Assembly: GCA_946185345.1 (NCBI GenBank) | Contig: CAMHJC010000001.1 | Coordinates: forward strand, 486-64,485 | Length of the DNA stretch: 64,000 bases | Origin: an uncultured Clostridia bacterium | GTDB lineage: Bacteria > Bacillota > Clostridia > Oscillospirales > Acutalibacteraceae | Direction: 5' to 3' | Shown here: piece by piece, positions 2,255-59,297 of the stretch | How the letters are laid out: each line of letters starts with the position of its first letter | Position numbering within the stretch: the stretch's first letter is position 1 | Program-made: the position numbers and the translations under genes | Notes under the pieces: model-generated | Told to the model about the DNA's origin: nothing | Databases searched by the model: none | Seen by the model: only the letters and a program-made list of their open reading frames with translations

Positions 2255-3585
2255 CACTGCATCAATACACAGTCACCCTCTTCACTTATATGACATTGAT
2301 TCCCGCCGCTGTGATCTGCTTTTTTCCCATGAAGAACCGCATCAGACACAGCATGAGCTATCTGATCATCTACTCGGCGCTGCTTTTTGGCATCACCCTG
2401 CCGGCAGCGGCTCTTGTCAGCTGTGCTTTCAATGTTCCTTTTGACATTTTGCTGGTGGTGCTGCTGCCGACCTACTTTCTGACATACCATAAAAACATTC
2501 AGACCAACTTCAGCAAATCCATTGCGGTATTTGCGTTTGTCTGTGCTCTGATGAGCGTCAGCTCCAACATTACCGTTATCTTTGACGCCCTGTTATTCCC
2601 TCAGTCAGATCCCAATACATTCAGATTCAGTTCCGCCGCCATTCAGTTCGTCACCAACATCATCATAGCGGCGATGCTTTTCATTCCCATGGTCAACTAC
2701 GGCAGCAGGCTGATTGACAGTCTGGATGTCGACAGCGTGTGGTATGCCACCGTGCCGATTTCGCTGATTTTCCTCACGATGAACATCATGATACAGCCCG
2801 TTCATTACAGCACACTCTATTTCAACAATATCTATAAGACATTCATCTGGTCCATCGCACTGCTGTTTTCCATGATGATTCTGCTGCTCGTCATGTTTTA
2901 TTTCATCGTCAAATTCATTCTCAGCTACGTCAGTACAGAGCAGCGGAACCGCATTCTGGAAATGCAGGAGCGTCAGTACATAACCCAGCGCAGATATATA
3001 GAGGAAAGCGCCAGAGTGCGCCACGATTTCAAGCAGACCATCGCCGCGCTCAAATCGCTCTCCGACGCGAAGGATTATGACGCCATCGGCAGCTACCTGG
3101 ACAAATACGTTCAGTCTGTCCCGATAAGGGAGATAAAGGATTACTGCCAGAACAATGCGGTCAACGCTCTGCTCAATTACTATATGCAGCAGGCCGAACA
3201 GGAAGGCATTAAGACCAGCCTTCGCATAGATATTCCCGAAAATCTCCCCTTCAGCGATGTGGATCTCTGCGACATCATCGGCAATATTCTCGAAAATGCC
3301 ATTACCGCCTGCCGCAAGCTCGACGAGCACAAACGTTGGATCCAGCTGGCCGCCATCATTCAGAATGATTCACAGCTTTGCATCGTCGCCACTAACAGCT
3401 TTGACGGCCATGTGCGCAGTAAATCCGGCCATTATTATTCCACACGGCACAGCGGCAAGGGCATCGGACTGCTCTCCATCGCCTCCACTGCCGAAAAGTA
3501 CGGCGGCACCGCTGAATTCTCCCACGAGGGCGGCGAATTTTACACCGACATCATGATGCCGATAAACGACCATTACAACGATTGA
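2251..3585 (+). CDS. AgrC-like (HPK10-type) membrane sensor histidine kinase, GHKL ATPase
   Basis: About 6 N-terminal TM helices. H-box is VRHDFKQTIAAL, N-box is GNILENAITA, G-box is GKGIGLLSI. Translationally coupled to the LytTR regulator. Confidence 0.9.
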   Translation: MTLHQYTVTLFTYMTLIPAAVICFFPMKNRIRHSMSYLIIYSALLFGITLPAAALVSCAFNVPFDILLVVLLPTYFLTYHKNIQTNFSKSIAVFAFVCALMSVSSNITVIFDALLFPQSDPNTFRFSSAAIQFVTNIIIAAMLFIPMVNYGSRLIDSLDVDSVWYATVPISLIFLTMNIMIQPVHYSTLYFNNIYKTFIWSIALLFSMMILLLVMFYFIVKFILSYVSTEQRNRILEMQERQYITQRRYIEESARVRHDFKQTIAALKSLSDAKDYDAIGSYLDKYVQSVPIREIKDYCQNNAVNALLNYYMQQAEQEGIKTSLRIDIPENLPFSDVDLCDIIGNILENAITACRKLDEHKRWIQLAAIIQNDSQLCIVATNSFDGHVRSKSGHYYSTRHSGKGIGLLSIASTAEKYGGTAEFSHEGGEFYTDIMMPINDHYND

Positions 3586-3615
3586 CGGCCCGCATGGATC
3601 CGCCGTCAATACATA

Positions 3616-3794
3616 ATACTAATTTTCGGCTAAAATCAGACATTCTTTGCGGCCTATTTTGCGCCCTGCGGCGTCATCGTCCTAGGCAGGCGCCAGCCTG
3701 CCGTCGTCCTGCTGTCGACGAGTCGACAGCTATTCCTTGCAGGACACAAAATATTCTCCCAAATAATTGTCTACTTTCAACCGAAAATTAGTAT
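3616..3794 (+). mobile_element. MITE-like structured intergenic repeat, copy 1 (long form, 179 bp)
   Basis: 14-bp perfect terminal inverted repeat ATACTAATTTTCGG...CCGAAAATTAGTAT. Internal hairpins are GGCAGGC-GCCA-GCCTGCC and GCTGTCGAC-GAG-TCGACAGC. Near-identical copies are at 30815-30980 and 58169-58347. Confidence 0.85.
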
Positions 3795-3796
3795 AA

Positions 3797-3836
3797 ATCC
3801 CCGAAGCGCCTCTTTTCAGGGCTTCGGGGATTTTTG
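3797..3836 (+). terminator. Rho-independent terminator downstream of the HK operon
   Basis: Stem ATCCCCGAAGC (3797-3807) pairs with GCTTCGGGGAT (3821-3831) and is followed by TTTTT. Confidence 0.75.
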
Positions 3837-30079: not shown

Positions 30080-30740
30080 TCCATATTCCGTACTGGGTGT
30101 TTCTCCGAACGCATCCGATGACGAGGTAAAGACAGCCTACAGAAACCTCGCCAAAAAGTATCACCCCGACAATTACGCCAATACCCCGGACGTTGCCGAG
30201 CTTGCCGCCGAGAAGATGTCACAGGTCAACGAAGCCTATGACATGATTGTCACGTCACGCAAAAACGGCACACCTGTCGGCGGTTCCTCCTCCAATGCCG
30301 GCACAAGCGGCACCAAAACCGCCAACGATCACAGCTCCTTCTCCGGCACGCAGCACACGGATTTTGCCGATGTGCGCAACCTTTTCAGCGCAGGCAGAAT
30401 CACCGACGCGGAAATGGTGCTCGACGGCGTGCCTAATTCCCGCAGAAACGCCGAATGGTATTTCCTCAAGGGAAGCGTGCTTTACCGCAGGGGCTGGATT
30501 GATCAGGCATACGCCTACTTCCAGACAGCCGTCAACAAGGCTCCCAACAACGCCGAATATCGCGCTGCCTACACGCAGGTTTCACAGCAGCGCACCGGAA
30601 GGACTGCCGGCTACAACTACAACAACGGCGGCGGTTCCTCCTGCGCAAGCGGCTGCGGTCCCTGCTCCACCTGTATGGGTCTGCTCTGTGCCGACTCCTG
30701 CTGCGAATGCTTCGGCGGCGACCTCATCACCTGCTGCTGA
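30072..30740 (+). CDS. J-domain protein with TPR-like middle and Cys-rich C-terminal tail
   Basis: J domain is [31 protein letters not shown]. The tail [34 protein letters not shown] has 10 Cys in 33 aa. ATG 30072 follows AGGAG. Confidence 0.85.
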
Positions 30741-30814
30741 GCCTTCGGCAAATCTGTTTTTCATCGCAAATCATTTACCAAGGCAGCACCGTGCGGATTG
30801 TACGGTGTTGCCTT

Positions 30815-30980
30815 ATACTAATTTTCGGCTAAAATCAGACTTTCTTTGCGGCCTATTTTGCGCCGTCCTAGGCAGGCGCCAGCCTGCCGTCGTCCTGCTG
30901 TCGACGAGTCGACAGCTATTCCTTGCAGGACACAAAATATCCTCGCAAATAATTGTCTACTTTCAACCGAAAATTAGTAT
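30815..30980 (+). mobile_element. MITE-like structured intergenic repeat, copy 2 (short form, 166 bp)
   Basis: Same termini and internal hairpins as copy 1. It lacks a 13-nt segment (CTGCGGCGTCATC) present in copies 1 and 3. Confidence 0.85.
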
Positions 30981-31004
30981 TAATTTTTAGAGGAGGTACC
31001 TTTT

Positions 31005-31547
31005 ATGAATTCAGGCTCTGTTTCCTCCAAAATTGCACTGTGCGGAATATTAACCGCACTGAGCGTTGCGGCAATGATTGTCGCTGGATTTATGGGAATC
31101 CTGACCTACGCTGCGCCGATGATCGCCGGAGGAGTGCTGATCGTGCCGGTGAGGCAATACGGAACCGGCACGGCGCTCACTATGTTTGCCGCCGTATCGC
31201 TGCTGGGTCTGATGCTTATTCCCGACAAGGAGATGGCTCTGTTTTATCTGCTGCTTTTCGGGCATTACCCCGTCATTCAGCCTTTGCTCAACCGGATCAA
31301 CAAAAAGCCGCCCAGGGTTCTGGTAAAGGCTTTGGTATTCAACTGCGGTGCGGTGCTTTCCGTTCTGCTGGCAAAGCTGATTTTTGCCGTGCCGGTTTTT
31401 GATTCCGATAAGCCGGTATGGATACTGGCGGCGGCCTATCTGATTGCCGCCAATGTCTGCTTTGCGTTGTACGACCGCGCACTGCTGGGTTTTTATACGC
31501 TGTACGACGTGCGGATAGGCCCTTTGCTCAACAAGCTTTTCAAATAA
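31005..31547 (+). CDS. Polytopic membrane protein (function unknown; possibly a small-molecule transporter component)
   Basis: 180 aa, about 5 TM helices, strong RBS AGAGGAGG. No confident family assignment. Confidence 0.6.
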   Translation: MNSGSVSSKIALCGILTALSVAAMIVAGFMGILTYAAPMIAGGVLIVPVRQYGTGTALTMFAAVSLLGLMLIPDKEMALFYLLLFGHYPVIQPLLNRINKKPPRVLVKALVFNCGAVLSVLLAKLIFAVPVFDSDKPVWILAAAYLIAANVCFALYDRALLGFYTLYDVRIGPLLNKLFK

Positions 31548-58045: not shown

Positions 58046-58168
58046 TTCTACTAAAAATAGTATAACAAAAGCCCGTTGACGCGGCTTGATTGAATTTCTC
58101 GGTCACCCCCTGCGTTCTTCGGGCTTTTTTTGCATATTTTGCATATACTATCAACAGGAATCCTATTC

Positions 58169-58347
58169 ATACTAATTTTCGGTTGAAAGTAGACAATTAT
58201 TTGCGAGGATATTTTGTGTTCTGCAAGGAATAGCTGTCGACTCGTCGACAGCAGGACGACGGCAGGCTGGCGCCTGCCTAGGACGATGACGCCGCAGGGC
58301 GCAAAATAGGCCGCAAAGAATGTCTGATTTTAGCTGAAAATTAGTAT
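58169..58347 (-). mobile_element. MITE-like structured intergenic repeat, copy 3 (long form, inverted orientation)
   Basis: Reverse complement of copy 1, including the 13-nt segment. There is one mismatch in the terminal repeat (TAGCTGAAAATTAGTAT). Confidence 0.85.
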
Positions 58348-58371
58348 CAGCTTTCTCGGAGGTACTGCCAT

Positions 58372-58509
58372 ATGCATGAAGCGGTTTGTGTTTTTATCGG
58401 TCTGTTTGTCGGAGGTATTGTCGGCGTTGTGACAATGTGCCTGGTTCAGGTCAATCACTGCAAGGACTGCCCTCACCGCAAAAGCGTCCTCAACCGGGGC
58501 GGCAGGTGA
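58372..58509 (+). CDS. 45-aa small membrane protein (DUF3789-like)
   Basis: Below the track cutoff. GGAGGT lies 8 nt upstream of the ATG. Sequence is MHEAVCVFIGLFVGGIVGVVTMCLVQVNHCKDCPHRKSVLNRGGR. It overlaps the convergent gene end by 20 nt. Confidence 0.45.
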   Translation: MHEAVCVFIGLFVGGIVGVVTMCLVQVNHCKDCPHRKSVLNRGGR

Positions 58510-59065
58510 CCTTAAGGCCTGCCAGCGCAGCAATGCCGGCGGCTTCGGCATAATCCGCTATACGGGAGGCGCCCATTGCCGCCGCTTCTCCGTACAGGTC
58601 GATAAAATACAGCGTAATTCCGGACTGACCGGCATATTCATTGAATAATGCCGCCCATGAGGCAAGATCCTTTTTCGGATCAAAACACAGCCTGTCAAAG
58701 GAAAAAACCATCCCGGCAGCCCTGAGCACTTCCCTGAGCGCCGAGGTAAATTCATCAGCGGAACAACCGGCATCCATCAGCCTCATATATCCCTCCGTCA
58801 CGGCCGAACCTACGGCGGCAATCACGCAGAGCCACGGCTCGGCTTCGGATGAATATTTCAGCCCGAATCTGTCAAGCAGCTCTCCCCGGGAGGAAAAATA
58901 GTCACGGGTATCGGCAAGGCAGCCGGCAATATCCGCCGCAACGGCTTCATTCTGACATGTGAGCATGCCGAAGGAGGTCTTAAGCGCCTCTGACGGCTGC
59001 ATGAATTCCTCTGCGGCAGTTTCCGGCAGATCGCCGCCCGATAATAACAGTTCGATGAGTTTCAC
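58490..59065 (-). CDS. Hypothetical cytoplasmic protein
   Basis: GTG 59065 (VKLIELLLSGGDLPE...) follows AAGGGTGA; the track start is 59137. No family recognised. Confidence 0.5.
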   Translation of the reverse strand: MKLIELLLSGGDLPETAAEEFMQPSEALKTSFGMLTCQNEAVAADIAGCLADTRDYFSSRGELLDRFGLKYSSEAEPWLCVIAAVGSAVTEGYMRLMDAGCSADEFTSALREVLRAAGMVFSFDRLCFDPKKDLASWAALFNEYAGQSGITLYFIDLYGEAAAMGASRIADYAEAAGIAALAGLKVTCRPG

Positions 59066-59297
59066 GTCTATCACCCTTTCATGACAATTTTTTGCCGTAA
59101 TCATTCTATCACATTGCCATGACGATTGCAAGATCAACAGAATTTTTCACCCGACATTCATCTGTCACGCTATTCTTTTAATTGAATGTTCACATAACAG
59201 TCAAACAATCGGTTGACTTGATAGTCAGAATGTGCTATTATTTAAGGAACGCCGCATGCTTACTGATCGGCAATCCATTTCTGAGAAGGTATGTGTT

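Follow-up and report, generated by a model that had tools for sequence, protein, structure and literature searches.

A recently active MITE family that duplicates TNA target sites in the genome of an uncultured Clostridia bacterium

Three copies of a short palindromic repeat lie within 64 kb of the genome of an uncultured Clostridia bacterium (Acutalibacteraceae), and they raise the question of whether they belong to a mobile family, what such a family duplicates on insertion and which enzyme would move it. We analysed a stretch of 64,000 nucleotides (hereafter the window; GenBank assembly GCA_946185345.1, contig CAMHJC010000001.1, positions 486 to 64,485), which is part of contig C1 of a draft assembly labelled G000 in our data set. 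This draft amounts to 2.50 Mb in 176 contigs, is 93% complete and breaks at repeats. An earlier note made from the letters alone had reported near-identical copies at 3616-3794 (+), 30815-30980 (+) and 58169-58347 (-), and all three were recovered there by BLAST with 91-100% identity and E-values of 1e-70 to 1e-89, so that the repeat is not a product of chance.

The neighbouring genes are those named at the outset, encoding a GHKL histidine kinase (copy 1), a DnaJ-domain/TPR protein (copy 2) and a 4HBT thioesterase (copy 3). Copy 1 lies between the stop codon of the histidine kinase (3585) and a terminator-like hairpin at ~3797-3835, a bidirectional terminator beginning directly after the copy. 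Copy 2 follows the DnaJ/TPR terminator hairpin, parting a terminator stem from its T tract, and precedes the ribosome-binding site of a gene whose start codon is at 31005; copy 3 lies between the thioesterase gene and a 45-codon ORF (58372-58509). The copies are thus downstream of genes, as had been described, but copies 2 and 3 are also 24 nt upstream of the next start codon, with ribosome-binding sites beginning 8-10 nt past their ends. Two ORFs dismissed as spurious (3582-3791 and 30247-30990) most likely are, as they overlap the element and have no Pfam match; the MITE creates spurious ORFs of this kind that gene callers will annotate. The 45-codon ORF (+) has a GGAGGT ribosome-binding site, starts 24 nt past copy 3 and overlaps at its end the convergent DUF6630 gene (58490-59137, -); it is a candidate gene or read-through from copy 3. 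Coordinates of all element parts in the window are given in Table 1.

Table 1. Copies of the MITE in the window, their target-site duplications and internal hairpins
Feature	Position	Strand	Basis or remark
MITE copy 1, element proper, TAC...GTA, 177 bp, full-length form	3617..3793	+	100% identical to query
Copy 1 left target-site duplication, TAA	3614..3616	+	sequence reading, flank alignment
Copy 1 right target-site duplication, TAA	3794..3796	+	sequence reading, flank alignment
Internal GC-rich hairpin 1, GGCAGGC-GCCA-GCCTGCC	3685..3702	+	folding, family comparison
Internal hairpin 2, GCTGTCGAC-GA-GTCGACAGC	3711..3730	+	family comparison
MITE copy 2, 164 bp, unique 13-nt internal deletion	30816..30979	+	alignment
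Copy 2 left target-site duplication, TTA	30813..30815	+	single TTA at empty orthologous site in G004
Copy 2 right target-site duplication, TTA	30980..30982	+	flank alignment, empty site
MITE copy 3, 177 bp, left arm variant TTTTCAGC	58170..58346	-	alignment
Copy 3 target-site duplication, TCA on + strand = TGA in element orientation	58167..58169	-	
Copy 3 target-site duplication, TCA on + strand = TGA in element orientation	58347..58349	-	

A BLAST search of the whole draft with the 179-bp unit yielded 37 full-length copies and about 9 further copies that are truncated or internally deleted. In addition, 52 of the 352 contig ends break off 48-98 nt inside the element and therefore, given how assemblers behave at repeats, stand for about 26 further hidden copies. 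The total is roughly 60-75 copies, or one per 35-40 kb, and since so many contig ends stop inside it, the family accounts for much of the fragmentation of this MAG. Copies this numerous dispose of a local duplication, the outcome that the earlier note had named as the one that would defeat its reading. The 30 copies of exactly 179 bp have a mean identity of 97.8% and each is 1-6 bases off the consensus. Deletion variants measure 142, 149, 152 (two copies), 158 and 166 bp, and a 27-nt deletion is located between TCGTCC direct repeats flanking hairpin 1. The 13-nt indel that had been taken to divide long from short forms proved to be a deletion found in a single copy genome-wide. At three places the left half of the MITE (60-93 nt) is fused to coding-like sequence (C19:27102-27194, C158:1722-1812 and C70:4772-4831); these fusions look like MITE-adjacent deletions or assembly joins.

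Read in element orientation, the flanks have the form T-N-A / TAC...GTA / T-N-A, which leaves an element proper of 177 bp. In 33 of the 37 copies both flanks carry the same TNA (TAA 15, TTA 12, TGA 6, TCA 0), within a wider Y-TNA-R target in which position -1 is C or T in 27/33 and position +1 is A or G in 23/33. A perfect matching TNA repeat was also found at 12 of the 19 copies checked in sister species. We then joined the flanks of 14 insertions and used them as queries against the 19 other species of the genus. For 6 of these 14 loci, at least one species aligned straight over the junction without extra DNA, the site of window copy 2 being empty in ten species. Base-level alignment showed a single TNA at the empty site of window copy 2 (G004 reads ggtgctgccTTAtttatgag), of the copy at C31:4222 (G003 reads tttcgaacTTAatctttcc) and of the copy at C43:11459 (G004 reads cacaagtaTAAaaacgc). 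The duplication is therefore 3 bp long, because the variable middle base matches on both sides and the empty sites carry one TNA, and not the TA of IS630/mariner-type elements that had been suggested. Together these sites demonstrate that insertion occurred after the species split and that the duplication is TNA. Flanks diverge by 11-30% between species, as against 97.8% identity among the 179-bp copies, and the family went through a recent burst in its own species. At one further locus, the G004 ortholog of the C69:4191 insertion (G004:C226:6931-7132) is about 147 bp longer than the reconstructed empty site, and this extra DNA may be an independent insertion of another element into the same intergenic gap.

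The repeat is short, non-coding and multi-copy, and it has terminal inverted repeats, a target duplication and empty sites, features by which MITEs are recognised. The suspected MITE-like mobility is borne out by dozens of copies in the genome and by orthologous sites that lack the element in sister species: this is a genuine, recently active MITE family.

The element ends in TACTAATTTTCGG...CCGAAAATTAGTA, a perfect terminal inverted repeat of 13-14 nt; in the window, copies 1 and 2 have the perfect 14 nt reported earlier, and a single mismatch interrupts it in copy 3 (TTTTCAGC). The arms pair imperfectly over about 54 nt at 79-80%, and the internal GC-rich hairpins mentioned for each copy are two in number. 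TCGTCC direct repeats lie on both sides of hairpin 1, which is missing in 123-bp forms of the family, and hairpin 2, with a weak T tail, is specific to the subfamily expanded in this genome. The whole element folds as a single long hairpin, and both strands beat shuffled controls (z = -8.2 and -11.2).

For the covariation analysis that had been proposed for the hairpins, we aligned 17 members from 8 species. Standard pairs made up 97.4% of pair cells, and pairing fell to 42-47% when partners were slid. Of 40 pairs, 8 underwent compensatory double changes, inner pairs and hairpin 1 among them (at pair 72/83 of hairpin 1, eight sequences have A-T and eight have G-C); all of these changes lead from one Watson-Crick pair to another, and the observed covariation score was reached by 0 of 500 shuffles. 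In 16 of the 17 members, folding of the minus strand is favoured by about 20 kcal/mol. This strand has 80 G·U cells versus 10 A·C or C·A cells, with G·U fixed or common at 9 positions and A·C occurring as singletons only and fixed at 0. This suggests that propagating copies keep one particular strand foldable, although the asymmetry could also go back to left/right end differences inherited from the parent. A search with Rfam covariance models returned no family, the highest score being the 17.6 bits of STAXI, whose gathering threshold is 40.5 (E = 0.16).

To place the insertion sites we used a gene map built simply from ORFs (2058 ORFs, 87% of the genome coding), and every one of the 37 copies falls between genes. 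Of 34 copies, 12 lie between convergent genes, compared with 17.5% of all intergenic gaps (p = 0.012), and 2 between divergent genes, compared with 18% (p = 0.07). Many insertions are next to or inside terminator hairpins, those at C25:3241 and C36:3483 being in the loop. Reconstructed insertion sites have a stabler fold than TNA sites drawn at random from intergenic DNA (-17.6 vs -12.6 kcal/mol, p = 3e-5) and are also richer in GC (0.43 vs 0.36), so that the preference for strongly folding sites is suggestive and confounded by GC content. Orientation relative to flanking transcription showed no bias (21 vs 13 copies, p = 0.23). Because copies stand between the terminators and the ribosome-binding sites of genuine genes, the MITE could alter their expression; we propose that effects on neighbouring genes are side effects of insertion beside such signals.

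Beyond this genome, 11 of 19 sister species hold the MITE family at 73-87% identity (members of the genus carry the labels "uncultured Ruminococcus sp." RUG14799 and RUG10756 and "uncultured Clostridia bacterium"), and more members were found in other Bacillota, Oscillospiraceae and Clostridia MAGs from rumen and gut. Plasmid and phage collections gave no match to the MITE. The forms make a series, from a 123-bp core without GC hairpins through a 156-bp form with hairpin 1 to the 177-bp form, which has both hairpin 1 and hairpin 2 and underwent the expansion in the genome studied here; a 163-bp form has a different hairpin where hairpin 2 stands, and the older, divergent subfamilies span 123-163 bp. 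Mini forms of 25-53 bp consist of the ends only, keep their TNA flanks and show microhomology at the internal junction, as expected if they arise by abortive gap repair or slippage. Apparently unpaired termini in G003, G018 and G019, considered as candidate IS ends, proved to be such mini elements.

The TACTAATTTTCGAC terminus is shared by a metagenomic family with a different body, and at least three body types carry the TACTAAT...ATTAGTA terminus. Conversely, the central core including hairpin 1 is common to two other repeat families with different ends. One of these, seen in G019 (L085, L090 and L263-L265), is a separate, MITE-like family of about 125-150 bp whose ends read TATAGCAATCCAAAC... 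(also given as TATAGCAATCC...); it has the same central GC hairpin (CCTAGGTGGGCGCCAGCCCACCGTCGTC) and is repeatedly nested in or abutting the MITE studied here. The other, in G021 (genus g3, L258-L261), is a longer repeat in which some 100 nt match the central core (TATTTTGCC...CGTCCTAGG hairpin...GACAAAATA) and the outer parts differ; the core therefore travels with different ends.

The window was said to hold no transposase, and this stands; the whole draft has only a fragment of one. Profile searches of the genome with PF13586, PF13359, PF13340, PF07592, PF01797 and PF13358 gave zero matches, and the sole match to PF01609 (DDE_Tnp_1) is an ISAs1-family transposase fragment. It lies at a contig edge (C90:9700-10162) and comprises the C-terminal part with an HWSIENQLHW motif and the end CAGGGCGACAGC. 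An IS with matching termini, which the earlier note had advised looking for, was found neither in the genome and the genus nor in GTDB species genomes and JGI metagenomes: none of the 30 PF01609 and 5 PF13359 loci of the genus has the MITE termini, the terminal 19-mer gave only chance matches and short forms against 185,579 species genomes and the JGI metagenomes, and 1 Mb of loci plus the genome itself held no TNA-TAC...GTA-TNA pairs 600-3000 bp apart. The smallest contig of the draft is at least 2.6 kb, so a repeated IS of 1-1.5 kb would probably have been dropped from the assembly. Sister species G007, G018 and G019 have IS1031-like elements, 876 bp long and flanked by a TTA duplication; the ends of such elements in the genus (GAGCCTGTTCAGAA or GAGCGTGTTCACA) do not resemble the TACTAATTTTCGG of the MITE. 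As the MITE ends are unlike GAGCC or GAACC, we infer the parent family from the duplication alone. On the sequences compared, the MITE cannot be assigned to any named IS, its ends differing from those of the IS groups considered and no partner having been found.

We consider it very probable that the repeat is a non-autonomous DNA transposon moved in trans by a DDE transposase with duplication of TNA. Such an enzyme would recognise both inverted ends, cut the Y-TNA-R target with a 3-nt stagger and insert the element, after which gap repair would leave one TNA copy on each side. It would most likely be an IS5-superfamily transposase of IS1031 or PIF/Harbinger type, judging by the exclusively 3-bp TNA repeats that this group produces, and its gene probably either fell out of the draft or operates from a different replicon. 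Correia, RUP and many other bacterial MITEs belong to the TA-duplicating IS630/mariner type, and the ends can indeed be read as TA + CTAAT...ATTAG + TA. An IS630/Tc1-mariner-type MITE written TA/CTAATTTTCGG...CCGAAAATTAG/TA nevertheless has next to no likelihood, as 33 of 37 copies have the same, variable base outside the TA on both sides, empty sites carry TNA and not TA, and a profile search found the assembly to be without a DDE_3 transposase. Derivation from an ISAzo13-family insertion sequence would be in keeping with one full transposase in sister species G001 and a fragment in G018, but ISAzo13 elements of the order end in AGGAACTGTTCA..., unlike the TACTAATTTTCGG of the MITE, and the transposase is very rare (among 301 genomes at family level one has a full-length match, among 401 at order level two) and missing from G000, G003 and G019, all rich in MITE copies, which makes this origin very unlikely.

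Other readings start from the fold. A REP/REPIN-like palindrome spread by a RAYT (Y1), or an IS200/IS605-type single-stranded element, would agree with a long hairpin, and the one-strand G·U mismatches and stabler minus strand hint at a single-stranded stage; these systems make no target duplication, however, and given the TNA duplication, the clean empty sites and the result of a profile search in which the assembly yielded no Y1 transposase, we hold either to be highly improbable. The repeat might also be a host-selected structured RNA or terminator module first and mobile second, which would account for the strong fold with its compensatory changes in 8 of 40 pairs, the enrichment of copies at 3' ends of genes and the central core held in common with two repeat families that have other ends. 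This too appears very unlikely: there is no Rfam family and no orientation bias, the T tail of hairpin 2 is weak, copies also occur in 5' regions, and compensation restricted to Watson-Crick pairs is expected as well from double-stranded recognition or arm-to-arm repair. A more speculative thought, which we regard as improbable but worth stating, is that TACTAAT...ATTAGTA together with TNA may mark a MITE group of rumen and gut Clostridia with a transposase lineage not yet linked to such ends, and that one specific strand may have to fold in transposition or as RNA. A need for one strand to fold, if true, would be unusual for a duplication-making DDE element.

Among known systems, Correia (Neisseria), ERIC (enterobacteria) and RUP (pneumococcus) are intergenic, palindromic MITEs of about 100-180 bp that form long hairpins and adjoin terminators and start codons. 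The MITE studied here is like them in size, intergenic location, palindromic structure and position beside terminators and start codons; they differ in duplicating TA and in being tied to other IS families. With the IS1031 group (IS5 family, including IS427-like elements) and MITEs derived from it, the present family shares the TNA target and the exclusive 3-bp direct repeat. Members of that group such as ISLrh of Lacticaseibacillus rhamnosus favour TNA targets, where their direct repeat is exclusively 3 bp (PMC12016507); IS1237/ISLxx6 is an IS1031-group/IS427-like example from the IS5 family (PMC2516522). The ends of the group start with GAGCC or GAACC and those of our MITE with TACTAATTTTCGG, and in its genome a profile search found the ISAs1 fragment and no IS1031-group transposase. 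PIF/Harbinger elements make TWA repeats (PMC4482050). Tourist-like MITEs of this eukaryotic group have a 3-bp TWA duplication, to be compared with TAA or TTA at 27 of 33 sites here, and are likewise small, high in copy number and found near genes in AT-rich DNA (PMC4482050); unlike them, the present family has a bacterial host, also uses TGA (6/33) and has unrelated ends.

For an uncultured rumen lineage the family provides a clean marker of recent transposition, and it is a well-documented bacterial example of a TNA/TWA-duplicating MITE type. What goes beyond routine is confined to the transposase that would move it and the strand-specific hairpin constraint.

A second modular repeat (repeat B), which begins with TTAATCCGGCAATAAAATATCTATCC, occupies positions 51279-~51500 of the window and has more than 100 BLAST matches in the genome, many at contig ends; it is also found in G000 at C7:41931-41983, C15:1-50, C46:19059-19323 and C101:8480-8546. 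No contig overlapping the chimera of A-terminus and repeat B on C46 was found in an assembly walk. In at least three loci repeat B directly adjoins the final 33 nt of the MITE, the junction being identical, and at C7:41930 it abuts the outer end of the MITE. Either the MITE is its target, then, or the two make up a chimeric mobile unit. Taken together, the MITE and repeat B join 171 of the 352 contig ends in one similarity cluster.
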